Program-made: the position numbers and the translations under genes
Assembly (NCBI GenBank): GCA_001783335.1
Contig: MFLU01000002.1
Location: 4,948 to 68,947, forward strand
Source of the DNA: Candidatus Kaiserbacteria bacterium RIFCSPLOWO2_01_FULL_50_24
GTDB lineage: Bacteria; Patescibacteriota; Minisyncoccia; Phycocordibacterales; UBA2100
Reading direction: 5' to 3'
DNA length: 64,000 nt
The notes under the pieces: generated by a model
What the model was told of the DNA's origin: nothing
The model's database searches: none
What the model saw: only the letters and a program-made list of their open reading frames with translations
In this document: piece after piece, positions 4,658 to 46,527 of the stretch
Layout of the letters: every line of letters starts with the position of its first letter
Numbering within the stretch: position 1 is the first letter of the stretch

Positions 4658-6751
4658 CTATTTAATAGTCACGGTTGTGGTCGCCTTTTTCGCGCCACCC
4701 GCTTTCGTTTCGCACGCAAGTTCAAAATCGGTATTTTGTGTGAGCGATGGCGTTTTCACAACGCCGCTCGTGTTTTTCTTGTTCTTTTGCGACTCGGTGA
4801 ATGCGGGGAGTTGAGGACTCGAGAGCGTGCATGATTCCATGCCAATTGTTACCCAGCCGATGTTCGCGGATTCTCCCGAGGCGACTTCTTTTGGATTTGC
4901 CACCAACACGATAGTTGTTTTATTGACGCGCACGGTGCACGTGTTTGACGCCTCCTTGCCGCTCGCATCGGTGCACATAAGTTTATAGGTAACCGACGAG
5001 AGAGTGCCGTTTCCCTCCTCGGGCGGCAAAACCGCCACCGTCACCCCTCCCTCAAGTTTCCCGCCTGTGTCAAACCCCTCGCCTTTTGCTTCTTTTGCAT
5101 TGCGACATGCGAATGCAAGCGCCACGCTTTGCCCTATGTCCGCAAGTTTTGGCGCGCAAGAAAGTTCCGCTGTTGCGATGCTGTCCGGAGGCGCGTCGGA
5201 GACCTCTACGCGCCCGGTGCACGATGTGCTAACCGGCACACTCACATAGTACTGCGATTGTCCGGACCCGGAAGAGGTGAGTTGCTGCACATGTCCAAGC
5301 ACTGCCATTGAAAATGTGGTGCTCTGCGAAGGCGATAGGGTCGTGGAACCTTGAAGCGACACCGCGCCGAGTCCGGAGATGTGCGCGGTCAGTGAGCCCT
5401 GCGCGCTCAATGTGTTCCACGTCAGTGTCACTGACTCTCCCTTTTTGATAGTAGAGGGACTCACCACAATTGTGCACGACGGCTGCCGCGCCTGCTGACC
5501 CTGCTGTTGGCCACCGAACAAGTCGCCGATGAAACTGCCGAGCATCCCGCCGACGCCACTGGATTCTCCGCCTCCGGGTGGTTGTTGCTGTTGCTGCCCC
5601 CGCAATGCATCCACTGCTCTCTGCCACGCAGGGTCGCGTTCTTGCACAATACGCTCAATCTCTTCCCGCGTGTATGTAGGAGGCGGCGCAGAAGGTTGCT
5701 GCCCTGGTAGTGGAGGAGACAGCGTATATCCTGGGAGTGGGGGTGGCGACGCATATGTAAACGGCGGGCTGATAGGAGGTTGCTGCCCTGGTAGTGGAGG
5801 AGACGGCGTATATCCTGGGAGTGGGGGTGGCGACGCATATGTAAACGGCGGGCTGATAGCTGGAACTGGAATTCTCGTTTTTTCCAGTCTAAGTGCGTCA
5901 AGATTAGTAAGGTCGATACTTTCAATCTGTTCTTTCGCAAACTGTGTCTCTACCTTTTCCCGTACCAGCATTTCCTTAACCGCCGTTTGGCCCGGAACAA
6001 CTGAGGCGATATCTGTGCCATACATATTGTCCACCCAAGTGGCGATGTATAGCGGGTTTTTGTTTGCTTCAAAATATGCAAGAGTCAATTGATGGTCGAG
6101 CGCATTAAGGTACATTTGTTTATTGCCGCCGTCTTTTAAATACGCGGCAAGTATGGATTGGGCCGCCTCCTCGGATGCGGCGTCTTTAACTGCCAAAGCT
6201 GTCAGGCGTGCTTTTAACTCTTTGTCTGCAGCGGCTTGATTGCCGATAGAAATACTATACGGTGAACCGCAAAGTCCCGCAGGATTGCACGAAACAACCT
6301 GGCACGTTTTACTGTTCAAGTCATCGGAAAAACGGAATGCTTCTATCTTTGGCGTTATGTCCTTTCCAGAAGGAGTGGTGACCTTGTACCGGCATCCGGG
6401 CAAACATGCTTGGATAACCCTCTGGCCAGTGACATTAGACGCTGAAGCGCTCGGTGGAAGTGTACTGCCTGTTTCTACCTTTTTCTGCTGGTCACATTCA
6501 GGCGATGCGGTGGTATGCACCGCCGCCGTTTGGGAGCGTAACGTATCCGGAGACGCGAACGGTCCCTGCATGGCAAGACCGAAAAAACCAAGTGTGCCGA
6601 CAAGCAAAACAACCGTGAGGAGCCCTCCGGGGAACGGCGCTTGCAAATCTTCGGAATCGCTTTTAGGCGCGCTCTCCGACTGCGGATTTTCCTGAATAAC
6701 TTCCGGTGCCGGATCTTCAACTGGCGCAGAGGGTTCTTGTTCGTCAGTCAT
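4658..6751 (-). CDS. Large membrane-anchored surface protein with a proline-rich tandem repeat and Ig-like C-terminal regions
   Basis: It has an N-terminal acidic segment, a TM helix, a near-perfect roughly 90 nt tandem duplication (about 31 aa, SPPFTYASPPPLPGYT[PL]SPPLPGQQP), a G/Q-rich linker and Ser/Thr-rich beta-rich C-terminal domains. The start was chosen at MTDEQEP. Confidence 0.55.
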   Translation of the reverse strand: MTDEQEPSAPVEDPAPEVIQENPQSESAPKSDSEDLQAPFPGGLLTVVLLVGTLGFFGLAMQGPFASPDTLRSQTAAVHTTASPECDQQKKVETGSTLPPSASASNVTGQRVIQACLPGCRYKVTTPSGKDITPKIEAFRFSDDLNSKTCQVVSCNPAGLCGSPYSISIGNQAAADKELKARLTALAVKDAASEEAAQSILAAYLKDGGNKQMYLNALDHQLTLAYFEANKNPLYIATWVDNMYGTDIASVVPGQTAVKEMLVREKVETQFAKEQIESIDLTNLDALRLEKTRIPVPAISPPFTYASPPPLPGYTPSPPLPGQQPPISPPFTYASPPPLPGYTLSPPLPGQQPSAPPPTYTREEIERIVQERDPAWQRAVDALRGQQQQQPPGGGESSGVGGMLGSFIGDLFGGQQQGQQARQPSCTIVVSPSTIKKGESVTLTWNTLSAQGSLTAHISGLGAVSLQGSTTLSPSQSTTFSMAVLGHVQQLTSSGSGQSQYYVSVPVSTSCTGRVEVSDAPPDSIATAELSCAPKLADIGQSVALAFACRNAKEAKGEGFDTGGKLEGGVTVAVLPPEEGNGTLSSVTYKLMCTDASGKEASNTCTVRVNKTTIVLVANPKEVASGESANIGWVTIGMESCTLSSPQLPAFTESQKNKKNTSGVVKTPSLTQNTDFELACETKAGGAKKATTTVTIK

Positions 6752-6867
6752 GAGGATAATGATACGCCAACCTCTACCATATGTACTATAGGTGCTATGT
6801 GGAGAGCGTATATAGGACGTACATTGAACCCCCATGCACCGTGGGTCTATTTAGATGACACTTACTA

Positions 6868-11545: not shown

Positions 11546-12823
11546 CTAAATTGCCATCTCAACAGTCACGTAATCGGTTGCGGGTTCGCCGTCGGTTGCG
11601 ACGCACGAGATAGTGAAAACAGTCACACCAGAGAGCGGTACCGTGGACGCGCCCCCTGAAAATCCTGTTTCGTGGAAGCTACCGTCGGGACTCGTTACTA
11701 TGCACGATTCCACGCCTCTTGAATTCCAGAATACTAACGTGCGCGAACCAATGGATACGCGCGCGGGGACGGCCCACACGTGCGCTTCTGGTTCTATAGC
11801 GGGTATCAGTTTTTCCTGCTTCACTTCTTTTTTCGTTTGCTGTAGTGGCTGTAGCACCGGATACACTGCTGTTTGTACTACGGGAAGCGGAGGCGGCGGT
11901 TTGTACCCGCGCCGCTCGCATAAACCATCAAAGAAAGAGCTCGGTATAACATACGTAATGAACGAGCCCGCCCAAGGACGCGATACGCACAAACGTGCGA
12001 CCATACCGCCCTCACCCATCCATGTTCCCGTTTGACCGTAAAATCCGGCCACCTCAAATCCGCGTGTTTCATCCCGTTCGCTGGCGATGGCAGTTGCCCC
12101 CGTGCCGATTTCTTCTATGCGTCCGTAAAGGCCGCTGCCGAGCGACACAGGAGTATCCAATACTCCGGAAGCAAGCGGCGGCTCGGATGAGGACATGTCA
12201 GACTCACTTTCGGTGGCGCGCAAAATTTCTTCACTTACCCCCGATTCCTCGCTGGGCACGTAGGGATCGCTTTGTTCATTGGTAAGCGATCCCATAAGGT
12301 CGCCAACAATGTCTTGCCCACTCGTTTCGCCGAAAGGCGATGTGAGAAGGTTGCTTGCGCCCGGAGAATATATCGCGCACGGATCGGTGGTCGGCGTAGT
12401 CACCTGGTAGTATGAAGGACATAATTGTTGTTGCTGTTGGCTTCCTTGCGATCCCTGCTGCATGAGTTTGTCCAAGACGCCCTTAAGGATATCCATAATC
12501 TCTTTCGGTATGCCGAGAGCCGTCTGTTTACCGTCCAGTCCTTCTGAGCTTATGCCGCGGCAGACACCTGGCGCGCTACTTTTACATATCCCTATCGTTT
12601 TTCTGTCGTTCGTTATATCAACACATGGGATGGCCTGACAAGACACACACCCTGGATCAAAGGGCGAGGGCGTACACTTTCCTGGGTAACAATACTGGGT
12701 TCCACAAAACGCATCTGCTTCCGTAAAAACGGCGTTGGTTGCGTATGGTATGAAAAGAAAACCAGCGGTGAGCAAAATAGCGGCAACCAACACAATACGT
12801 TTGCCATAAAGAAAGCAACTCAT
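11546..12823 (-). CDS. Hypothetical secreted cysteine-rich protein
   Basis: N-terminal TM/signal region (IVLVAAILLTAGFLF), about 12 Cys in the first 100 aa (CGTQYCYPGKCTPSPFDPGCVSCQAIPC), then a Q-rich linker and an acidic, S/T-rich region. Confidence 0.5.
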   Translation of the reverse strand: MSCFLYGKRIVLVAAILLTAGFLFIPYATNAVFTEADAFCGTQYCYPGKCTPSPFDPGCVSCQAIPCVDITNDRKTIGICKSSAPGVCRGISSEGLDGKQTALGIPKEIMDILKGVLDKLMQQGSQGSQQQQQLCPSYYQVTTPTTDPCAIYSPGASNLLTSPFGETSGQDIVGDLMGSLTNEQSDPYVPSEESGVSEEILRATESESDMSSSEPPLASGVLDTPVSLGSGLYGRIEEIGTGATAIASERDETRGFEVAGFYGQTGTWMGEGGMVARLCVSRPWAGSFITYVIPSSFFDGLCERRGYKPPPPLPVVQTAVYPVLQPLQQTKKEVKQEKLIPAIEPEAHVWAVPARVSIGSRTLVFWNSRGVESCIVTSPDGSFHETGFSGGASTVPLSGVTVFTISCVATDGEPATDYVTVEMAI

Positions 12824-17472: not shown

Positions 17473-19167
17473 ATGGTGCAATTAAGTGATGAAAGAAAAC
17501 AGGATGAGCGCCTGGCAGAGTTGCATAAGAGGGAGGAGGAAAAGCTCGCGGAGATGCTCTCTTCAAAGTACGGCGTGGAGTATGTGGATCTCTCCTCCAA
17601 ATCCATTGATACAGACGCGTTACGCCTCATTCCGGAAAAGGAAGCGCGCGAAGCGGAAATCGCGGCATTCCGCAAAATGAACAAGCGCATTATGGTTGCC
17701 ATGCGCGCGCCAGAGCGACAGGACGCCTTGAGAGCAATACAAAATCTTGAGCGGCTTGGTTATGAGACGCGACGATTCATCGTATCGCGCGCATCACTAG
17801 AGCGCGCGTGGAACCGCTACAAGGACCTTTCGTACGCCACCGAAACCGAAGCTGGCGTATTGACGCTCTCCAACGAAACTATCCAAAAAATGCTTACAAA
17901 GCTGAAAACGCTCCGAGACATCAAGCAGCACATAGACGACAGCATTATGAGTAAAGACCCGCACCGCATATCGCGCGTTCTGGAAATTATCATGTCGGGC
18001 TCACTCGCCCTCGGTGCATCCGACGTACACCTGGAGCCGGAGCAAGAAAACGTGCGCATGCGCTATCGGCTTGATGGCGTTCTCGTAGACGTCCTCATGC
18101 TTGACATCCCGACCTACGCACTCATTTCGAGCCGCATAAAACTCCTCTCTGGCCTAAAACTAAACATCAAACACGCTGCGCAAGACGGTCGTTTTTCCAT
18201 TGTGGTCAACGAGCGGGAAATTGAGATTCGCACCTCCATGCTTCCGGGGGCGTACGCCGAGACCATCGTCATGCGCCTCCTTGATCCGGCAACAATCGGC
18301 CTTCCTATGGAAGAACTTGGGTTTGACAAGTACCTCATGGAAATCCTGAATCGCGAAATTCAAAAACCGAATGGCATGCTCCTCAACACAGGACCGACGG
18401 GGTCGGGAAAAACGACGACTCTCTATGCGTTTTTGCGCAAAGTGCACAAGCCAGAGATTAAAATCGTTACCATAGAAGACCCGATTGAATACCACCTTCC
18501 GGGCATCGTTCAAACACAGGTATCGCGCGACTACACCTTCGCGCTCGGCCTGCGCTCTACGCTCCGCCAAGACCCAGACATCATCATGGTCGGCGAGATA
18601 CGCGACGCGGAGGTTGCCTCAACTGCCGTCCACGCATCCTTGACCGGCCATCTCGTATTCTCCACGCTCCACACCAATGATGCGGCAGGAGCGTTTCCGC
18701 GACTCATTGACATGGGCGTGTCCGCAGACATTTTAGGTGCGGCAATCACCGTTGCCATGGCACAGCGTCTAGTGCGGCGGCTTTGCCCGAAGTGCCGCGA
18801 GGCGCAGCCCATAACGGGCGCGAGCGCAAAACTCTTAGCGCCCCTCCTTACCAACATCCCGCATCCAGAAGACATGCCGCAAAATCGGGACACGATGTGG
18901 GTCGCGAAAGGATGCGACGCGTGCGGCGGCATAGGCTACAAGGGACGCGTCGCGGTCATTGAGGTAATTCTCATGGACAGGGCGATAGAAGAAATAGTAC
19001 GCAAAACTTCTAGCGAGCGAGAAATTTGGCGCGCGTCGCGTGCCCAGAAAATCCGCCGAATGGCGCAAGACGGCGCGGTGAAGGTGCTGAAGGGTGTAAC
19101 TTCAGTAGAAGAGCTCAGTCGTGTCGTTGATTTGACTAATGAGGTGATGCTGGAAACGTTGGCGTAG
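17473..19167 (+). CDS. pilB: Type IV pilus assembly ATPase PilB (GspE family)
   Basis: GspE N1 domain, Walker A LNTGPTGSGKTTTLYAFL, Asp and His boxes, and tetracysteine CPKC...CDACGG. Confidence 0.85.
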   Translation: MVQLSDERKQDERLAELHKREEEKLAEMLSSKYGVEYVDLSSKSIDTDALRLIPEKEAREAEIAAFRKMNKRIMVAMRAPERQDALRAIQNLERLGYETRRFIVSRASLERAWNRYKDLSYATETEAGVLTLSNETIQKMLTKLKTLRDIKQHIDDSIMSKDPHRISRVLEIIMSGSLALGASDVHLEPEQENVRMRYRLDGVLVDVLMLDIPTYALISSRIKLLSGLKLNIKHAAQDGRFSIVVNEREIEIRTSMLPGAYAETIVMRLLDPATIGLPMEELGFDKYLMEILNREIQKPNGMLLNTGPTGSGKTTTLYAFLRKVHKPEIKIVTIEDPIEYHLPGIVQTQVSRDYTFALGLRSTLRQDPDIIMVGEIRDAEVASTAVHASLTGHLVFSTLHTNDAAGAFPRLIDMGVSADILGAAITVAMAQRLVRRLCPKCREAQPITGASAKLLAPLLTNIPHPEDMPQNRDTMWVAKGCDACGGIGYKGRVAVIEVILMDRAIEEIVRKTSSEREIWRASRAQKIRRMAQDGAVKVLKGVTSVEELSRVVDLTNEVMLETLA

Positions 19168-19425: not shown

Positions 19426-20286
19426 ATGATCGGTCTTCTTTTGGTCAGCATCTCCACGCTCGCCGAGGAAATTCGAGATTCTCTCGGAAAATACGAAGTA
19501 TCACACCATCTGTCCAATATTTACGCGCTCGGATTTCTGACAAGCGTTGGGGGGCTCATCACCATTCTCGCAATCGGTTTCTTAGCACCAAAAGACTTTC
19601 TTGCGCCCGGTTTCCCAGCGGGATTCATATTCTCCACCGCCTCTCTCCCGACACTTCTTCCCCGTCTCCTCCTAGAGCTTTTTCAGGTACACATAACATT
19701 GCGCGCCCTCGTTGAGGCCGATAGAAGCACGTTCGGTTTTTTGCGCACGCTAACCCTGCCGCTTCTCTTTGCAGTAGACATACTTCTTGGGTATCACATC
19801 GGATTCTTGCAGGTCGTAGGCCTATCCGCGATCATTGGCAGTCTGTTCATACTTTTCGTTAACCACGGATTGAATACGCGCGGTTCGGGGCTCGTCCTTC
19901 TTGGCGCAGTAAACGCGGTCGCGACTATCTCACTCTTTAAATACAACATCACAAACTTCAACTCTGTGGAAACGGAACAGGCTATTTCATTTGCGTTCTT
20001 AACGGTTATCCTACTCTGTGTCGTGATTGCAAAGGGGCAAAACCCATTGCGTCTCGCGTCTCGTCCGCTATCGGTACTGCACATACTCTTAAGCGGTGCC
20101 GGAAGCGTTGTGTTCGGATTCGCTCTCGCCTTTGCTCCCGCATCTGTTATTACCGCGGCAAAGCGGTCACTATCTGTTTTGTGGGCGCTTGTCTCCGGAC
20201 ACGCGTATTTTGAAGAACATCATGTTGTATTGAAACTCGTGTGTTTCGTGCTCGTATCGACAGGTATCGTGTTACTCGTCGTATAA
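19426..20286 (+). CDS. Hypothetical polytopic membrane protein (about 8-10 TM; EamA/DMT-like profile)
   Basis: 286 aa, strongly hydrophobic throughout. Confidence 0.4.
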   Translation: MIGLLLVSISTLAEEIRDSLGKYEVSHHLSNIYALGFLTSVGGLITILAIGFLAPKDFLAPGFPAGFIFSTASLPTLLPRLLLELFQVHITLRALVEADRSTFGFLRTLTLPLLFAVDILLGYHIGFLQVVGLSAIIGSLFILFVNHGLNTRGSGLVLLGAVNAVATISLFKYNITNFNSVETEQAISFAFLTVILLCVVIAKGQNPLRLASRPLSVLHILLSGAGSVVFGFALAFAPASVITAAKRSLSVLWALVSGHAYFEEHHVVLKLVCFVLVSTGIVLLVV

Positions 20287-21877: not shown

Positions 21878-22099
21878 ATGTGTATGGACCAAAAATTACT
21901 CGTGGGTGTTGCTGTTGGGCTCGTTGTTGGAGCTATTGGTGGGTATCTTATCGGCGGGAGCCAACCCGCCCCCGCCAGCGAAGGGGTGGCGAGTGAGGAG
22001 GGGGGGGCGGTGAATCCGTTTGAAAACGTTACCGCAAATCCACTTGAGAACGTGCGGACGAACCCTCTCCAGAACGTAAAGCTTAATCCGTTTGAATAA
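21878..22099 (+). CDS. Small membrane protein with NP[FL][EQ]NV octapeptide repeats
   Basis: N-terminal TM helix (LLVGVAVGLVVGAIGGYLIG), then AVNPFENVT-ANPLENVRT-NPLQNVKL-NPFE. It lies 17 nt upstream of the Cys-repeat protein gene. Confidence 0.4.
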   Translation: MCMDQKLLVGVAVGLVVGAIGGYLIGGSQPAPASEGVASEEGGAVNPFENVTANPLENVRTNPLQNVKLNPFE

Positions 22100-22116
22100 T
22101 ATTCCGACTCGCCATT

Positions 22117-24120
22117 ATGACACTAAGAATTTTTGGTGCGACCACTCTCGCCGTGTTCGCATTTGCACTTTTCGGCGCGGGAATAGCATTCGCGCAAGAA
22201 GACACCGTAACGTTTCCCGTTCCGGAACTCGGGAACTGTGAATCAAAAGAGCAGTGCAAGGCGTATTGCGACAATCCGGACAACGTGCAGCAGTGTATTA
22301 ACTTCGCGGAAGCGCATGGTCTGATGTCTAAAGAGGACGTTGAGGTTGCGCGCAAGGTGGGATCGGACACGGGTCCAGGAGGGTGTCGCGGACAAGAATG
22401 CAGAGCGTACTGCGAGAACCCCGACCACGGGGAAGAGTGTCTCGCGTTCGCAGAAGAACGTGGGCTACTTCCGCCGGAAGAGTTGCGTGTAGCCAGACAA
22501 GTTATCAGGGAGGGCGGTCCCGGCGGATGCCGTAATGAGGTGCAGTGCAGAAGCTACTGCGACGCCGACGGCCACTTTGAAGAATGTATTGCGTTTGCAG
22601 AACAACATAATCTCATCCCCCCGGAAGAGCTCGCCATGGCAAAGAAGATGGGCAACAAGCCGGGCCCTGGCGGGTGCCGCAGAGAAGAGTGCCGCACATA
22701 CTGCGAAAATCCTGATCACATGACGGAGTGTATCGCGTTCGCCGAAGAGAACGGCTTGATATCTCCCGAGGAAGCGCAGATGGCCAAGAAAATGGGAAAC
22801 AAGCCGGGGCCGGGCGGATGCCGCGGAGAGGCGTGTCGCACATACTGCGAAGACGAGTCGCACATGGACGAGTGTATGGCATTCGCCATTGAGAACGGGA
22901 TGATGAAACCGGAAGAAGTAGAGATGGCGAAAAAAATGATGAGTCAGGGAGGACCGGGAGGATGTCGCGGACGGGAGTGCCAAACGTACTGCGAAAACCC
23001 AGAACATCAGGAAGCGTGTATGTCATTCGCCGTTGATAACGGCATGATGAAACCGGAAGAAGTAGAGATGGCGAAAAAAATGATGAGTCAGGGAGGACCG
23101 GGAGGATGTCGCGGACGGGAGTGCCAGACATATTGTGACGACCCTGCACATAATGAGGAGTGTTTTGCGTTCGCGGAACAAAACGGCCTAATCTCTCCTG
23201 AACAAGCACAGCAGGCGCGAAAGTTCCAGGAAGTTGGCGGTCCCGGCGGATGCAAGGGACAAGAATGCAGAACGTACTGTGAAGGCCCGGAACACATGCA
23301 AGAATGTATGGCGTTTGCGCAAGAACAGGGTTTTGGACCTCCTCCGGGCGAACATGGCGGCGAATTTGGAGGACCGCCCGGTGGGATGCCGTGCGGGAGC
23401 CCAGAAGAATGTGAAAAGATGTTCCGTGAGGGCGGTATGCCGCAAGGCGGAGAATTCGGGCCCGGACGTCTTCCGGGGCAAGCCGACTTCGGGCAAGACC
23501 GAGCAATGGACATGCGCGAGTTTGAAACACCGCCCGGATTTGAGCATCGCGGGGAATTCGGACCACAAGGAGAATTCGGCGGAGAGACGCCCTGTGCTTC
23601 ACCGGAGGAATGTCAACGAATGTTCAGTGAACACGGTGACTCTCCAGAGGGATTCGAACAGCAGTTTAATCAACAGTACCAAGAAGAATACCAGAAACAA
23701 TATGATATGCAGAGGCAAGAATTTCAGCAAGACGGAGCACAGTACCAACAAGACGGTATGAACTTCCAGCAGGACGGAACGCAGTACCAGCAGAGCGGCA
23801 CACAATATCAACAGACACAAACGGGTACATACGGCGATTCGCATCAAATGACGCCGGAGCAACAGCAACAGTATCAATCGGGAACCTACACACAACCCTC
23901 GTCTGGTTCGTACGACGGTGGTTCATATCAACAACCAACTTCAGGTTCGTACACGCCATCCTCCTCAGACGGTGGTTCTTATCAGCAACCGTCCGGATCT
24001 TATAGCCCACCTCCCTCGGGAGACTCCGGAGGGTCTATGCAGCCACCCCCAGGACCAACGTCTTCTAACTTTGTAGCGGCGGTTGTCTACGCATTCCAAC
24101 TGCTGTTCGGATTACGGTAA
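22117..24120 (+). CDS. Secreted protein with eight tandem roughly 48-aa Cys4/His repeats and a Q/Y/S/G-rich low-complexity C-terminus
   Basis: Signal peptide MTLRIFGATTLAVFAFALFGAGIAFAQ. Repeat unit C[RK]GxECRxYCE[ND]P[DE]HxxEC[IM]AFAExxG[LM][IM]xPEExxMAKKMxxxxGPGG, eight times. The tail runs QQYQ..QQDG..GSYQQP. Confidence 0.65.
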   Translation: MTLRIFGATTLAVFAFALFGAGIAFAQEDTVTFPVPELGNCESKEQCKAYCDNPDNVQQCINFAEAHGLMSKEDVEVARKVGSDTGPGGCRGQECRAYCENPDHGEECLAFAEERGLLPPEELRVARQVIREGGPGGCRNEVQCRSYCDADGHFEECIAFAEQHNLIPPEELAMAKKMGNKPGPGGCRREECRTYCENPDHMTECIAFAEENGLISPEEAQMAKKMGNKPGPGGCRGEACRTYCEDESHMDECMAFAIENGMMKPEEVEMAKKMMSQGGPGGCRGRECQTYCENPEHQEACMSFAVDNGMMKPEEVEMAKKMMSQGGPGGCRGRECQTYCDDPAHNEECFAFAEQNGLISPEQAQQARKFQEVGGPGGCKGQECRTYCEGPEHMQECMAFAQEQGFGPPPGEHGGEFGGPPGGMPCGSPEECEKMFREGGMPQGGEFGPGRLPGQADFGQDRAMDMREFETPPGFEHRGEFGPQGEFGGETPCASPEECQRMFSEHGDSPEGFEQQFNQQYQEEYQKQYDMQRQEFQQDGAQYQQDGMNFQQDGTQYQQSGTQYQQTQTGTYGDSHQMTPEQQQQYQSGTYTQPSSGSYDGGSYQQPTSGSYTPSSSDGGSYQQPSGSYSPPPSGDSGGSMQPPPGPTSSNFVAAVVYAFQLLFGLR

Positions 24121-25362: not shown

Positions 25363-25545
25363 ATGCGGGGTAAAAGTGGGACGCAATTGCGGTTGCCCTC
25401 ACACACTGCACAAGAGCAAGATAACTCCATCAAGGTCCGGCCTTGATAAAGTATGCGGGGTAAAAGTGGGACGCAATTGCGGTTGCCCTCACACACTGCA
25501 CAAGAGCAAGATAACTCCATCAAGGTCCGGCCTTGATAAAGTACG
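25363..25545. repeat. Two-unit tandem direct repeat of about 90 bp (near-perfect), each unit carrying GCAATTGC and CAAGG-TCCGG-CCTTG palindromes
   Basis: ATGCGGGGTAAAAGTGGGACGCAATTGCGGTTGCCCTCACACACTGCACAAGAGCAAGATAACTCCATCAAGGTCCGGCCTTGATAAAGT, read twice in tandem. Confidence 0.8.
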
Positions 25546-36491: not shown

Positions 36492-37538
36492 CTACTCATT
36501 ACCAAAAAAGCCACTTTGGGTCGTCGGCTCAAATGTTATATTCCACGTGTTCCGCGCATTTTGCAGCCAATTTACGGCATGGCTGAATATAAGTTCTATC
36601 TGCGCCACCACCTGAGCTCCTTCCGTGCGTATAGTAATTTGATTTTGTTCGCTACCTGGCACGAGCGAGCGATTTACGCCCCAGTTGAATATATAGTCAT
36701 TCTGTTCTCTCGCCGTGTCTGCGTAATAGGGAGTGGCGGTGAAGGTTGCCTCTCGGTCGTCAAAAAAAGCGTTCTCTTGTATAGCCGCATTGGTGAGCAC
36801 TCCAAAAAGCGGATGTTCATGGTATAGCAAAAGCACGGGTTCGTATGAAGAAATGCGCTCTGATGCGTAGCCGCGATATGTATCGTCCGACGATGTTACC
36901 GTTACTGAAAGGATGTGTGAGCCGAATAACGGTGGAGTTGGCACTTCCACAATATTTTTCCCGCGTCCCGAAACGCTAATGAGCACATGGTTGTTCCTGC
37001 GCCACGTGTAGGTAAGTTCGTTCGACTCCAGTGTGCTGCCGTTTGCGCGGCGGAATCGTGTCAGCGCTTCTGCGCGCATGGTCACTCCTGCCGATGGAAG
37101 CGCGCGTCCGCGAAAAAATGGCGGCACGTATGAGTTCGCGCTCCAATGGAGGTCAACCTCCGTGGGGCGTATCGTAACAAGTCCGACGGCGCGCGCCCCG
37201 TCCGGTGAAATCGCGGCCACCTCCACCGACACACTCGTCCCACTCGCTCCAAGCGTGACCGTAGCGCTTCGCACGCCGGTTCCCGATGTAATCCGTTTCC
37301 CATTCGCACTCCACGATATGGCGCTTTCTCCAAGCTCAAGAACGTTTCCGATGACACGGAGAGTAACGATCTCAAATGGCGCCGGGTACGCGGGGTCAAC
37401 TTCAATAGATAACGGATCGACGGGAGAGAGGAGCGTTTGTCCATGTGCGGCAAGCGGTATCATACATACCGTCATGATAAGCAGTCGAAAACACCACATG
37501 CTCGTTGTCATATATTTAATGTTCGGCAGGAGCGCCAC
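36492..37538 (-). CDS. Hypothetical secreted protein (signal peptide, beta-rich)
   Basis: Hydrophobic N-terminal helix (MWCFRLLIMTVCMIPLAAHGQ). It overlaps the virB4-like gene by 23 nt and is probably co-transcribed. Confidence 0.45.
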   Translation of the reverse strand: MALLPNIKYMTTSMWCFRLLIMTVCMIPLAAHGQTLLSPVDPLSIEVDPAYPAPFEIVTLRVIGNVLELGESAISWSANGKRITSGTGVRSATVTLGASGTSVSVEVAAISPDGARAVGLVTIRPTEVDLHWSANSYVPPFFRGRALPSAGVTMRAEALTRFRRANGSTLESNELTYTWRRNNHVLISVSGRGKNIVEVPTPPLFGSHILSVTVTSSDDTYRGYASERISSYEPVLLLYHEHPLFGVLTNAAIQENAFFDDREATFTATPYYADTAREQNDYIFNWGVNRSLVPGSEQNQITIRTEGAQVVAQIELIFSHAVNWLQNARNTWNITFEPTTQSGFFGNE

Positions 37539-42496: not shown

Positions 42497-44755
42497 CTAC
42501 GGTCCACCCGGCGAGCGTGGCGCAGATGGCTTTGACGAATCCATGTGTCCCCGCACCATGTCCGAGATCCTGCCCAAGTCTTTCTTTTCCTTGCGCGTTG
42601 TAACGGCTGCCCTGGATTGGTATGCGAGTGAGTCGTTTTTTTCGGTGAGCGGTATCCCCATTTTCTCACGGAGCACATTAGTGAATCTCCCGCGCGCGCT
42701 TTCAAATGCGGCCTCTTGTGCATCTAGAAACTTTTCTGGAAGCAGACCTTTGTCTTTGGCAATCTCATCCACCCGGTCAAGGATGGCTCTTTGCAAGTCC
42801 GTGTCTCGCTTAATGGATTTTTGCGCTTGAGAGATACGGCTCTTTACTTGTTCCAGGTTCGAGTTGTCCCTGTCGTGTTCTTCTCTACGCCTATCAACCT
42901 CTTGTCTCGCCACGCTTGTATCTCTTACTCCACCGGATATCAAATCCTCCAAGTGCTGTTCTGATTCACGAAGGATCTTTTGACTCTTTGCCGCGCTGTT
43001 CGTATGCTCTATGCTTGCGTTCATTGCCTGCGCCAATTCATTCTGTGACGCGATCAATCTGTCCATCGCATCTTTGTTCTGCCCCGCGAGTTGTGTGTTT
43101 CCAGCAAAAACATCTTCACGGACTTTGTCTATAAACTTTTCCTGCTCTTCTTTTGACATTGCGACGCGCTCCCCCTCGCGCGCGTAACGCTCCGTGGCCC
43201 GCTTTTCTGCCCCCGCATATCCTTTCGTGTCCTCCCCCGTGAACGTCCCCGATTTTTTGAATTGTGCGACTTTTTGTATTTCACGTCCGAGCATGGAGTG
43301 TGTCGCATTGAAGTCGCGTGTCGCGATTTTTTTGGCCGCCTTCTCGCTGGTGTCGTACATTGCTTGCTGAAGGCGATTTGTCGCATACGGGCGCCATCCA
43401 CCCATGGCTTTGGGAGAAAGAGGTTTGCCATCTTTGTCTAGACCCGCTCTCCGTATGTCGGTACCACGCATCTGCGCCCACGCGCCCGCCCCGCTTGCTG
43501 CCAAGCCCAACGTTCTTCTTCCCGCGAATGCGGCTATTCTGCCGCCGAGGCCTAAGGCAAGAGCTGGCGCAAGCGCCGCCATGCTGAAGCCACCTATGTT
43601 TTTTGCGAACATAGAGGCGAGCTTGACGGATACATATAAAAATCCGATAACAAACAGAAACATGATGATGGCGAGCCACCCGTTTTGGTTTCCCGGATTT
43701 TGGATGAACTCGATAAGGTTCGCGGACCCCTGTGGCGCACGCAGGAGAACGAGTGATGCCCACAAAAATATCATTAAGAGCGGTCCAAAGAGTGCCGCTT
43801 TTATGAGCATTTCCCACCACCCCTTCCAGCCGTACTGCGAATCGCCGAATTGCGGAATGAGATACGAGGCGAACGCGAGAGAAGACGTTATGGTGACGAA
43901 TATCAAAAGGATTGCGCGTGACACCATAAGGAAACTGGCGTAAAGAAAGATGAGAGCAGAAACAAGCAAAAACGTACTGACGGCAACCGCGTATACAATA
44001 ATGATGGCGGCACTATCGTTTTTGGTGCCAATTCTGTACAAAACGCCTGCCGTATCAAACAAACCCGGGACCCCCGCGCGCCCCATGAATGCCCCTGCAA
44101 TGCCGGAAGTTGACTGTGCTGCGGCGACAATCCCCTGTTCGCTCGTGGTAGGAGCGCCCTGACCCGCCGTGCCAGCCACGGCGGAGATTGATTCCTTGTA
44201 GAATATGCCCGCAACGAGGTTGGAGCTGTCAATAATGATGCGTGTGAAAAGCAAACTGAAGTTAATCAGTACGGCAACGATAAGTACGCGCGCTATCATT
44301 GCTTTGTCGCCGTAGCGCGTTATGCCGAGAATTATAGAGATTGCGATAAATACGAACATGCCGATGATGAGGATGTTTGCAATGTCGCGGAATGCTTCCC
44401 ACACAAGATTAATGCCATCGGCGATACCGAGTTTTTGAAGGACAAGCGATAGGTCTACGACGGTCCATTGTATGAGTGCATCAAACACGGCTCCGGCGAT
44501 GACCGCGAGCATACTGGAGAGCGATATGAGCAAAAAACCCAGGAATGTGAATATTAGTTGTAAAGCCCACTGTATCGTCCACCGATACACGGTCCCACCG
44601 ATTTGTGACAACAGAGAGCCGTCTGCCGCCTCTGCTGCATACGCGAGAATCGGAATGCAAAGTAAAACGAGCGTGGTTGCACAGAGTGTCGCGTATAAAT
44701 ATGGGCGTATGCGTTCCGACATAGTACTTATTGCGTTTTCCAACGGTCTATCCAC
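42497..44755 (-). CDS. VirB6/TrbL-like polytopic membrane protein with a long C-terminal coiled-coil cytoplasmic domain
   Basis: 752 aa. A signal-like N-terminus, roughly 10 hydrophobic helices over the first 430 aa, then about 300 aa of charged coiled-coil. Confidence 0.45.
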   Translation of the reverse strand: MDRPLENAISTMSERIRPYLYATLCATTLVLLCIPILAYAAEAADGSLLSQIGGTVYRWTIQWALQLIFTFLGFLLISLSSMLAVIAGAVFDALIQWTVVDLSLVLQKLGIADGINLVWEAFRDIANILIIGMFVFIAISIILGITRYGDKAMIARVLIVAVLINFSLLFTRIIIDSSNLVAGIFYKESISAVAGTAGQGAPTTSEQGIVAAAQSTSGIAGAFMGRAGVPGLFDTAGVLYRIGTKNDSAAIIIVYAVAVSTFLLVSALIFLYASFLMVSRAILLIFVTITSSLAFASYLIPQFGDSQYGWKGWWEMLIKAALFGPLLMIFLWASLVLLRAPQGSANLIEFIQNPGNQNGWLAIIMFLFVIGFLYVSVKLASMFAKNIGGFSMAALAPALALGLGGRIAAFAGRRTLGLAASGAGAWAQMRGTDIRRAGLDKDGKPLSPKAMGGWRPYATNRLQQAMYDTSEKAAKKIATRDFNATHSMLGREIQKVAQFKKSGTFTGEDTKGYAGAEKRATERYAREGERVAMSKEEQEKFIDKVREDVFAGNTQLAGQNKDAMDRLIASQNELAQAMNASIEHTNSAAKSQKILRESEQHLEDLISGGVRDTSVARQEVDRRREEHDRDNSNLEQVKSRISQAQKSIKRDTDLQRAILDRVDEIAKDKGLLPEKFLDAQEAAFESARGRFTNVLREKMGIPLTEKNDSLAYQSRAAVTTRKEKKDLGRISDMVRGHMDSSKPSAPRSPGGP

Positions 44756-46527
44756 ATATCAAGCACGGACTGATTGTTCACATTACACCAGCCAATAGTA
44801 GGGTCGGTGGAATCGGCCCACGCGACTATCGTATCTTCTACGAGCGACTTAACCGCACTATTCACATCCTCAAGTTGTTTTTGTGCCGCCACGAGGTCGT
44901 ACTGATTATGGAGAAGTTTTTGCGCGACAAGCGAATCCAACTGTTCAAGCGCGAGACGCTGATTGGTAACCGACGATGTGTTCGTCACTCCCGCGATAAG
45001 CTGGTTTATCAATTGCACCGCTTTTTCCGATGCTTGTACGTCGTTCGCTACTTGGACCGCGACGGGCGACACTTGCGCGTCAATGACCGCTTGCGATTCG
45101 GCGGTTGATGTTGCGACGTTCAGTGTCCCGCCTCCTACCGTTTGACACTTCCCCCCCGACACGGGCGTCGCACACACTCTGTCTATGATTAAGTTCCAGC
45201 ACTGCCGCTCCGCAGAACGCAGTTGGTTGACGAGGGAAGTGAGTGTTTGCGCGATTTTACGTTTGGCTTCCCAAAACGCAGTCTCTATCTGACGCGCGGC
45301 GTTCAAAATACCTATAGCCACATTTGCCACGGCGTTGCGCAACCCCTGCCCGGACTCTGCAGCCATTCTATCGAGGTACGACGGCTGCCCGCCGAGCGAC
45401 TGCGTGAGCCCGTAAAGACCGCGTGTGTCGGTGGACGCCTGCGTGGAGAGGCCGGAGAAAAGCGCACTCACGATTTGGTCTATCTCGGTCGCGCTTTCCA
45501 ACTGTTTGCGGCCGCTGTCCAGTGTTACCCAGAGCGACCGGGCGATGAGCATGCTCGGCGTCACGATATTTGCTGTAAATGGATTATCAAGGTCGTCTTT
45601 CTGCGCGTAAAAGCCGTCGCCCCAGTCCCATTCTTGTCGCACGTTTTGTTCCAGTTGGGTTAGTTGCATCTCTACATTTTCTCGCGCGAGTATGAATGCG
45701 CCTAGCTCGTGGTTCGCGGGATTGAGCCCGTATTCCATGAGGCCGGAAAGTCCGCCGCACTTGGTCATGTCACCGTCCAAGAATGCTCGCCGATCCGCGT
45801 CAGAGCAGGTAATGGTGCACGCGAACGCACTGTTTGTTTTTTGGGTTGTCATATAGTAATTGCGTGCGATGGCGGGCCGCACCTTGTCTTTAAATGTAGA
45901 GCATAATGGCGACAAGTATTCTTCACTCTTGAGAAGTTGCACAAATCCCTTACTTTCTTCTTCCAGTAATTCGTATCGAATATTTTGTACATACTGTGGA
46001 TTGCCGCCACGCCCTGATACCGCATCGGTAATTCGCTTTTTCGCTAATCCCGACGTGAGGCTCTCTACTTGTCTTTTGATAACGCCGTCCAATACGCATT
46101 CTTTATAAATGAGGTAGCCGGTGTTAAGGGTTACGGCCGCATCGTTGACGGGTACATAGATGCTCCCGCGCGCGGCAAGCGCGCCCACGCTCATGGAGTA
46201 CGAGCCCGTCTGGTTACAGCCGAATATTCCTTCTCGCTGAAACTGGTAATCTTCCGTTGCGGGCGTTGGAGGCTGTGTGGCGTCTTGTGCAGACGCGAAC
46301 GCCGGAGTAGCAAGAAGCGCGAGCATTAGTATGTATACTCTGGAATTCATAGCGGATTTTGATCGCGAGCGAACCGCACAAAACTCGTCGCGAGGGTCAA
46401 AGACGGGCTTGACGACGTGCCCAAGGCACGGTGAGAGGCCGTCTGCATGCCCGCAGCAGAGTTTTGTGCGGCGCAGCCGCGAGACGAGACTGTATTGTTT
46501 GCTTTTTTCATAGTCCGAGCTGGTCAA
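44728..46527 (-). CDS. Hypothetical secreted protein of the T4SS-like locus
   Basis: Internal signal peptide (MNSRVYILMLALLATPAFASAQ). Cys-containing N-domain, Q/A-rich C-terminal half. It overlaps the virB6-like start by 28 nt. Confidence 0.45.
   Translation of the reverse strand: MTSSDYEKSKQYSLVSRLRRTKLCCGHADGLSPCLGHVVKPVFDPRDEFCAVRSRSKSAMNSRVYILMLALLATPAFASAQDATQPPTPATEDYQFQREGIFGCNQTGSYSMSVGALAARGSIYVPVNDAAVTLNTGYLIYKECVLDGVIKRQVESLTSGLAKKRITDAVSGRGGNPQYVQNIRYELLEEESKGFVQLLKSEEYLSPLCSTFKDKVRPAIARNYYMTTQKTNSAFACTITCSDADRRAFLDGDMTKCGGLSGLMEYGLNPANHELGAFILARENVEMQLTQLEQNVRQEWDWGDGFYAQKDDLDNPFTANIVTPSMLIARSLWVTLDSGRKQLESATEIDQIVSALFSGLSTQASTDTRGLYGLTQSLGGQPSYLDRMAAESGQGLRNAVANVAIGILNAARQIETAFWEAKRKIAQTLTSLVNQLRSAERQCWNLIIDRVCATPVSGGKCQTVGGGTLNVATSTAESQAVIDAQVSPVAVQVANDVQASEKAVQLINQLIAGVTNTSSVTNQRLALEQLDSLVAQKLLHNQYDLVAAQKQLEDVNSAVKSLVEDTIVAWADSTDPTIGWCNVNNQSVLDMWIDRWKTQ

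Follow-up and report, generated by a model that had tools for sequence, protein, structure and literature searches.

A co-inherited gene pair of Parcubacteria encoding a predicted exported Cys4 helical-repeat protein and its small putative membrane partner with an NPF-ended tail

Introduction

Tandem arrays of short helical units are well known from the Armadillo and HEAT alpha-solenoids, in which units of 40–50 residues with two or three helices stack into a rod with specialised caps; these proteins are cytosolic, lack disulfides and commonly bind extended peptides. Helices held by cysteines are found in the CHCH proteins (twin-Cx9C), the small Tims (twin-Cx3C) and the plant alpha-hairpinins (Cx3C...Cx3C), in each of which two disulfides hold a short helix-turn-helix unit together. 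At prokaryotic cell surfaces, the LPXTG/sortase substrates of monoderm bacteria, whose spacer spans the wall, and archaeal S-layer glycoproteins, which have a stalk, combine a signal peptide, repeats, a low-complexity spacer rich in P and G and, at the C-terminus, a hydrophobic segment whose last residue is often basic, while in eukaryotes NPF-type tripeptides, repeated in acidic disordered tails, are received by the paired helices of EH domains. Here we describe a pair of adjacent genes that shares features with each of these systems, located in a stretch of 64,000 nucleotides (the window; contig MFLU01000002.1, positions 4,948 to 68,947) from Candidatus Kaiserbacteria bacterium RIFCSPLOWO2_01_FULL_50_24. 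The small gene (21878..22099) encodes 73 amino acids (aa) as called, and is followed after 17 nt by the large gene (22117..24120), which encodes a 667-aa protein of Cys4 helical repeats that is predicted to be exported. Both open reading frames (ORFs) and their spacing are as an earlier sequence-only reading of this DNA had given them, and all features of the pair lie on the plus strand.

The modules of the large protein resemble Armadillo and HEAT repeats in unit length, number of helices, stacking and capping, as far as the predicted structure shows, but there is no significant sequence, profile or structural match between them, and the present modules are predicted to be extracellular and carry four invariant cysteines. 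With the disulfide-stapled hairpins they share a CxxxC within one helix. However, each module has one CxxxC instead of two, the loop that leads into the first helix contains the first cysteine (C1), the second helix contains the fourth (C4), and the connectivity is likely sequential (C1–C2, C3–C4), whereas that of the twin-CxnC hairpins is nested. Furthermore, the modules have a third helix, occur in tandem arrays of 6–13, are bacterial and would be exported, and no homology to the CHCH, small-Tim or alpha-hairpinin families was detected in Pfam, PDB-sequence and Foldseek searches. The overall layout is that of the sortase substrates and S-layer glycoproteins, but the large protein has no LPXTG, PEP-CTERM, PGF-CTERM or other known motif, and its terminal helix is short and, across the family, mostly amphipathic. 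The tail of the small protein recalls the NPF ligands of EH domains, with the paired helices of the modules as a candidate receptor by analogy only, yet the present proteins are bacterial and would meet outside the cell, and Pfam detected neither an EH nor an EF-hand domain in the large protein. Kazal and Laminin-G/ConA-like domains are accessory in relatives, the Cys4 module itself not being a Kazal domain.

The Two Genes Are Inherited Together

The two genes are a co-inherited, Parcubacteria-specific unit with obligate synteny, as the sequence-only reading had supposed in treating them as one unit. Immediately upstream of the large gene, and in the same orientation, a small gene that encodes a transmembrane (TM) helix and NP repeats was found in 52 of 78 loci under a strict definition of the motif, and in 78 of 81 under a relaxed one; all but one of these 78 small proteins end in NPF within their last five residues. 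In the reciprocal direction, six matches to the small protein were taken from long contigs of lineages not sampled before, and all six are followed, after a gap of 0–40 nt, by a Pfam-less protein of 530–603 aa with 6–9 Cys4 modules. Besides the small protein, no ORF cluster recurs in more than eight of the 81 loci. Linkage in both directions, amid neighbourhoods that are otherwise unrelated, provides the strongest functional evidence for the pair.

The sequence-only reading, which had asked for homologues in related genomes, missed a large and conserved family of the candidate phyla radiation (CPR, or Patescibacteria). A word-indexed search returned more than 2,311 matches, which is a lower bound, with named sources that are all Patescibacteria and are annotated as “hypothetical proteins.” Among 1.84 billion proteins, the module profile retrieved the representatives of 1,767 clusters, mostly from Parcubacteria lineages where the source is named, with 6–13 modules in each of the best 150 of these representatives, and a scan of one genome per species placed relatives in 314 genomes, including Kaiser-, Azam-, Colwell-, Nealson-, Jorgensen- and Yanofskybacteria. 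A profile of the small protein found 880 clusters (73–133 aa), all from Parcubacteria lineages. A second large gene is found in Parcubacteria group bacterium Greene1014_15 (VMGT01), where the two copies sit on separate contigs (L044 and L067), so that some lineages have paralogues. Three family loci bear labels from outside the Patescibacteria, namely an Aenigmatarchaeota archaeon (L074, JACQIA010000017.1), an uncultured archaeon (L056, CAYJVB010000007.1) and a gammaproteobacterium (L072, CAZVIU010000028.1). The small NPF-repeat gene is present upstream in L074 and L072, and no partner was found by either method in L056; these labels may reflect mis-binning, generic naming of metagenome-assembled genomes or horizontal transfer.

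Neither repeat belongs to a curated family, a solved structure or a published description that we found, in line with the sequence-only reading, which had recognised neither. The best Pfam-A match of the large protein is Nodulin_late (11.4 bits, cut-off 30.4) and the best NCBIfam match reaches 13.4 bits against a cut-off of 60, while the small protein has nothing above threshold in either collection (best Romo1, 15.4 bits, cut-off 27.6). The module profile matched no PDB sequence below E = 0.17, and literature searches on cysteine-rich, Kazal, surface or disulfide proteins of CPR/Patescibacteria returned no description of the family. Some homologues carry Pfam labels (HepT-like, SHOCT, MopE, AtDEF-like, DUF2680, YrzK), which were not accepted as family assignments, being marginal matches to charged helices or Cys motifs. 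For the AtDEF-like defensin model (PF25052) there is no match in the window protein, and two relatives score 26.7 and 25.5 bits (cut-off 25) in a match that spans the signal peptide and module 1 but of which no single stretch passes on its own.

The family has a conserved architecture, which consists of a signal peptide, an FP[IV]xELGNC N-cap, the modules, a variable spacer and a C-terminal helix. Among the top 120 homologues, 93 have eight or nine modules, with an overall range of 6–10. Relatives may carry accessory domains between the rod and the tail, a Kazal domain in 27 of the top 120 (e.g. P0109, 90 bits) and a Laminin_G_3/ConA-like lectin domain (LamG) in three of eight long members tested; the window protein matches neither in Pfam. 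Both kinds of domain are extracellular binding modules and favour a role in surface display.

An Array of Cys4 Modules Predicted to Form a Rod

The N-terminus of the large protein looks like a signal peptide (MTLRIFGATTLAVFAFALFGAGIAFA, 22117..22194), for which the -3/-1 AxA rule predicts Sec cleavage between AFA and QED, and an N-terminal hydrophobic segment is found in 305 of 320 family members. The earlier description of a secreted protein with a signal peptide thus holds as far as export can be predicted, but it overlooked the hydrophobic helix at the other end of the chain (see below). The N-cap and module 1 follow (TVTFPVPELGNC..., 22195..22371) with the conserved FP[IV]xELGNC motif, and then modules 2–8 (22372..23376), each of which reads GPGG-C-x4/5-C-x3-C-x8-C and continues with FA..NG...PEE...AKK over three predicted helices. 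Seven GPGG motifs are present, one at the start of each of seven modules. Of the 36 cysteines of the protein, 32 are located in the eight modules, four in each, and all four are kept in 1,504 of 1,504 aligned modules of the family. The sequence-only reading counted the modules correctly and gave a period of 48 aa, which is in fact 48–49 aa, but placed nine residues instead of eight before the last cysteine.

The modules were also said to be near-identical, which applies to one pair only. Amino acid identity is 42–61% with module 2, the reference row of the alignment, and DNA identity is about 42–66% for module pairs other than 5 and 6, whereas modules 5 and 6 (22807..23094) share 84–86% of their nucleotides, a sign of recent duplication within the gene or of gene conversion. 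Tandem Repeats Finder reports a period of 144 nt with scores of 452–478, including a segment at 22866–23174 with 86% matches. Across the family, module 1 finds module 1 in 38 of 71 eight-module proteins and is the only module with a position-specific identity; for the internal modules the score at the orthologous position exceeds that of the best paralogue in just 49 of 568 comparisons. Position-specific orthology was therefore rejected for all modules except the first, the internal ones being homogenised within each protein. Together with the copy number of 6–10, this homogenisation suggests that the modules are equivalent units in a multivalent or structural array. Downstream of module 8 is a region with two degenerate half-modules (GMPCGSPEECEKMF and ETPCASPEECQRMF, 23386..23631), in which C1 and C2 are kept, as PCGSPEEC (aa 425–432) and PCASPEEC (aa 492–499), and C3 and C4 are lost; half-module-like motifs are also present in relatives.

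An AlphaFold2 model of the full chain, computed from an alignment of 121 sequences, has a predicted local distance difference test score (pLDDT) above 90 for aa 30–400, and each module folds into three helices of about 8, 13 and 13 residues. The predicted template modelling score (pTM) is 0.55 for the full chain, about a third of which is disordered, and 0.68 for a three-module fragment with a pLDDT of 90. On these values the inter-module geometry appears to be confidently fixed, and the modules are predicted to form a rigid helical-repeat rod or solenoid, instead of the loose “beads on a string” of the sequence-only reading. Foldseek searches of the PDB with the full and the three-module models found nothing significant; the sole matches of the full model are proteins of the Armadillo/HEAT-like solenoid kind, namely AP-2/AP-4 beta, PP2A-A in STRIPAK, condensin and SLT70, at E ≥1.2 and TM-scores ≤0.13.

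Spacer and C-terminal Helix of the Large Protein

The last 230 aa of the large protein had been described as low-complexity throughout and as a prion-like Q/Y/S tail. A disordered Q/G/S/P/Y stretch does exist (23755..24063, pLDDT <50), but the region also comprises the two 2-Cys half-modules, a long α-helix at aa 513–546 and the terminal hydrophobic helix. The helix at aa 513–546 is rich in Q, E and Y (FEQQFNQQYQEEYQKQYDMQRQEFQQ, 23653..23754), is predicted with a pLDDT of about 80 (76–89 by block), is partly conserved in relatives from Kaiserbacteria, and could be a coiled-coil or oligomerisation element. A period-21 repeat was reported by Tandem Repeats Finder at 23725–23792. In the family the spacer is P/G/E/Q-rich and variable in length, with a median of 148 aa, so that the Q/Y/S-rich composition from which a prion-like character had been derived is better described as the lineage-specific version of this element, which probably behaves as a flexible spacer.

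The chain ends in a hydrophobic helix with a terminal arginine (SNFVAAVVYAFQLLFGLR, 24064..24117), a putative membrane anchor or docking helix. In the family this helix comprises about 15–18 residues and is hydrophobic or amphipathic: hydrophobicity of the tail exceeds 1.0 in 211 of 320 members, amphipathicity is significant family-wide, with a hydrophobic moment of 0.35 compared with 0.22 for shuffled tails, and the last residue is R or K in 151 of 321. No NCBIfam CTERM model matches at E ≤1, and neither LPXTG nor PEP is present in the large protein. A hidden Markov model of the tail found no convincing ORF outside the family among about 1,030 ORFs from about 1 Mb of sampled CPR DNA, and a general sorting signal was rejected for this sample; the tail would therefore be an intrinsic anchor or docking helix.

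The Small Partner Protein

The small ORF has two in-frame ATGs at 21878–21886 (MCMDQK...), of which the second, at 21884 (MDQK...), is probably the real start, since it agrees with the homologues and with the annotation of a 71-aa protein in two sister genomes. As the sequence-only reading had it, the protein has one TM helix and four NP repeats, and it appears to be a single-pass, signal-anchored membrane protein with an NP[FLY]-repeat tail. The single hydrophobic helix (L7–G27, 21896..21958; LLVGVAVGLVVGAIGGYLIGG) is Gly-rich, is kept in the alignment of homologues as a TM or signal-anchor helix, and gives weak sub-threshold Pfam matches to Gly-zipper and Romo1 models. The tail (aa 46–73) reads NPFENVTA-NPLENVRT-NPLQNVKL-NPFE, that is four NP[FL]xNV-type motifs (22013..22096) ending in a C-terminal NPFE, and this part is the conserved core of the family. 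In an alignment of 26 diverse homologues the last three motifs (N52/P53, N60/P61 and N68/P69/F70 in the 71-aa numbering) are invariant and the first is nearly so, and the invariant part of the protein is a C-terminal ...NPx...NP[FY]xx[VI]KxNPFx core. Tails in the family are generally short and acidic, with 3–5 NP[FLY] motifs and NPF at the end.

A similar tripeptide, xPF, is found just before the N-cap FPI-ELGNC of the large protein in 64 of 265 members (e.g. P0003 and P0058), as NPF itself in 36, and is not present in the window protein; at this frequency an NPF-like start of the rod was rejected as a general feature. Its resemblance to the terminal NPF of the partner may be coincidence, or may point to the same contact being made within a single molecule.

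A Proposed Surface Complex

We propose, with a probability of roughly 45%, that the pair forms a membrane-tethered, disulfide-stapled helical-repeat surface protein in complex with a small membrane partner. From sequence, family comparison and predicted structure we infer its export, membrane topology, disulfides, anchoring, partner interaction and any ligand. The large protein would be exported by Sec, and its eight 48-aa three-helix modules, each probably with two disulfides, would stack into a rigid all-α rod that begins with a specialised N-cap and is followed by the degenerate copies without C3 and C4. The flexible low-complexity spacer and the C-terminal hydrophobic or amphipathic helix would hold this rod at the cell surface, where the small protein, being signal-anchored, would expose its acidic tail ending in NPF. 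Both proteins would most likely associate physically, either by placing the NP-repeat peptide along the modules or by pairing of the membrane-proximal helices, and the rod would thereby become a multivalent platform for binding at the surface, whether to organise the envelope or to make contacts between cells. A site of function at the cell surface is probable.

Several observations weigh against this proposal. The C-terminal helix is in most members too short and too polar for a classical TM segment, with a median Kyte-Doolittle value of 1.26 for the best 14 residues. Lysines and arginines flanking the helix of the small protein average 1.26 on the N-terminal and 1.44 on the C-terminal side, so that the positive-inside rule leaves its topology undecided. 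NP-motif counts and module counts are uncorrelated (Spearman rho 0.17, p 0.14), and a scan of the ORFs for CxxC and hydrophobic segments revealed no evident DsbA or VKOR gene in the 64-kb window. A bolder form of the proposal, which we regard as speculative and doubtful, holds that the Cys4 module is a new extracellular fold, that the disulfide-stapled solenoid clamps the extended NP[FLY]-repeat peptide of the partner in a new kind of receptor system where one repeat binds another, and that the complex is a core element of surface building or host attachment in Parcubacteria, to which LamG and Kazal domains were added in some lineages for ligand binding or defence against proteases.

The layout of a rigid domain, a low-complexity stalk and a C-terminal anchor would also suit a passive envelope pillar or spacer, which sets a distance or a surface layer without any specific ligand, the small protein acting as a membrane receptor for the C-terminal helix by helix pairing. 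Consistent with this, the internal modules appear interchangeable (49/568, see above), the small protein has a Gly-zipper-like TM helix, the tail of the large protein is rich in small residues, and this tail is specific to the family. However, the invariant part of the small protein is the NP...NPF core and not the TM helix, the accessory LamG and Kazal domains point to binding, and there is no evidence for the formation of a lattice, and we consider a purely passive role unlikely.

Disulfides Versus Metal

The sequence-only reading left it open whether the modules are stabilised by disulfides or bind metal. Disulfides are favoured over metal binding, most likely as C1–C2 and C3–C4, because of the export signal, the even number of cysteines, the 2-Cys loops, the joint loss of C3 and C4, the variable histidine and the Kazal domains of relatives. 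The mature protein has an even cysteine count in 192 of 194 members, and the cysteines located elsewhere than in the modules form groups of 2, 6 and 10 besides groups of 4, with at least 144 isolated C-x4-11-C loops in the C-terminal halves of family members. At module-like C1-x4-6-C2 loops, C3 and C4 occur together in 2,597 cases and are both missing in 109, with only 39 mixed cases, and the two half-modules of the window show the same joint loss. Presence or loss of C3 and C4 as a pair therefore fits two separate disulfides and not one site with four ligands.

In an alternative of distinctly low probability, each module would bind Zn, Fe or Cu through its four cysteines, with or without the histidine and acidic residues, so that the array would serve as an extracellular metal store, a buffer or an electron conduit in anoxic groundwater. 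The anoxic aquifer is the habitat of these organisms, and thiols could stay reduced there. The strict retention of all four cysteines and the acidic residues that flank them would suit a ligand site, and one relative has a sub-threshold match to the Cu-binding protein MopE (25.9 bits, cut-off 27). The histidine, which had been called conserved, is indeed found in seven of the eight window modules and in 71% of modules family-wide, but is replaced by asparagine in 23%. Unlike zinc-knuckle or rubredoxin sites, the large protein has no CxxC; in addition, the extra-module cysteines are paired, the 2-Cys half-modules are conserved, a four-ligand site would not be expected to lose C3 and C4 while retaining C1 and C2, and disulfide-dependent Kazal domains occur in the same polypeptides of relatives. 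Furthermore, oxidative folding of the MdbA/VKOR type has been reported for CPR bacteria, which are enriched in an MdbA-like thiol-disulfide oxidoreductase, often encoded next to VKOR (Méheust et al., bioRxiv 10.1101/335083).

It is very improbable that the protein is a polyprotein precursor, cut at the GPGG linkers into 5-kDa disulfide-rich helical peptides with an antimicrobial, toxin or signalling role: the tandem, equal-sized, Cys-rich modules homogenised per protein and the borderline AtDEF-like matches of two relatives would fit, but continuous inter-module packing is confidently predicted (pTM 0.68), module 1 is a distinct N-cap, half-modules (a 4-Cys terminal variant in relatives) follow an array of 6–10 modules in the top 120 homologues, the spacer and C-terminal anchor are conserved, and neither a processing-site motif nor, in the survey of conserved neighbours, a linked protease gene was found.

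Locus, Assemblies and Neighbouring Genes

An identical 667-aa protein is encoded on at least ten contigs. Three contigs that were examined represent three different assemblies, and in these the ORF is intact, with 0–1 nt differences from the window, so that the repeat array is not an assembly artefact. Variation of the repeat number, which had also been suggested as a check, was not observed, the module array of the large gene being invariant among the near-identical assemblies. In the same contigs a perfect tandem repeat of 90 bp in the intergenic region between ruvC and PBP1A (25363–25543; 2.0 copies, 100% identity) does vary, with two copies in the window and in L002 (8247–8427) and one in L001 and L003 (8247), all otherwise identical. 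The antisense ORF of 329 aa (22613..23602, minus strand) had been called an artefact of the repeats and is indeed not a gene: long stop-free antisense stretches are common in the homologous genes, with a median of 208 aa and with 18 of 76 reaching 300 aa or more, which is explained by purine-rich sense codons. A promoter scan of the locus gave three promoter-like sites with 1.7 expected, and a terminator scan found none; both scans are uninformative.

The other neighbours of the pair are not shared by its relatives. A functional link to RuvB, YebC, RuvC, PBP1A or the PilB-like ATPase was rejected, as none of these is conserved beside homologues in 80 independent loci. The PilB-like T2SSE/MshEN ATPase (17473–19167, plus strand), three genes upstream of the pair, is probably unrelated for this reason. 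Elsewhere in the window, further large ORFs lack a Pfam match, on the minus strand at 4658–6835, 11546–12823, 36492–37511, 42497–44722 and 44728–46350, and on the plus strand at 19426–20286. They include proteins of 725 and 425 aa, each with 15 Cys, and one of 540 aa with 10 Cys, and some have an N-terminal hydrophobic segment; they are candidates for further uncharacterised exported proteins of this Kaiserbacterium.

Significance

The known part of this system is an exported, Cys-rich, tandem-repeat surface protein with spacer and anchor, and what is new are the module, the fold it appears to have and the obligate partner with its NPF repeats. The cassette also extends the tandem helical-repeat proteins by a bacterial member that is probably both disulfide-bonded and extracellular. 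Models of the repeat and of the partner motif in Pfam or NCBIfam could annotate thousands of “hypothetical proteins.” The CPR/Patescibacteria account for a large share of bacterial diversity, and most of them have not been cultured. They are presumed to live attached to other cells, while very little is known of the surface molecules that take part. The present cassette, which spans the lineage with no fewer than 314 species genomes and 1,767 clusters and has so far had no annotation, is a concrete candidate for a Parcubacteria-specific surface complex, with a clear partner relationship and a confident and apparently new structural model.

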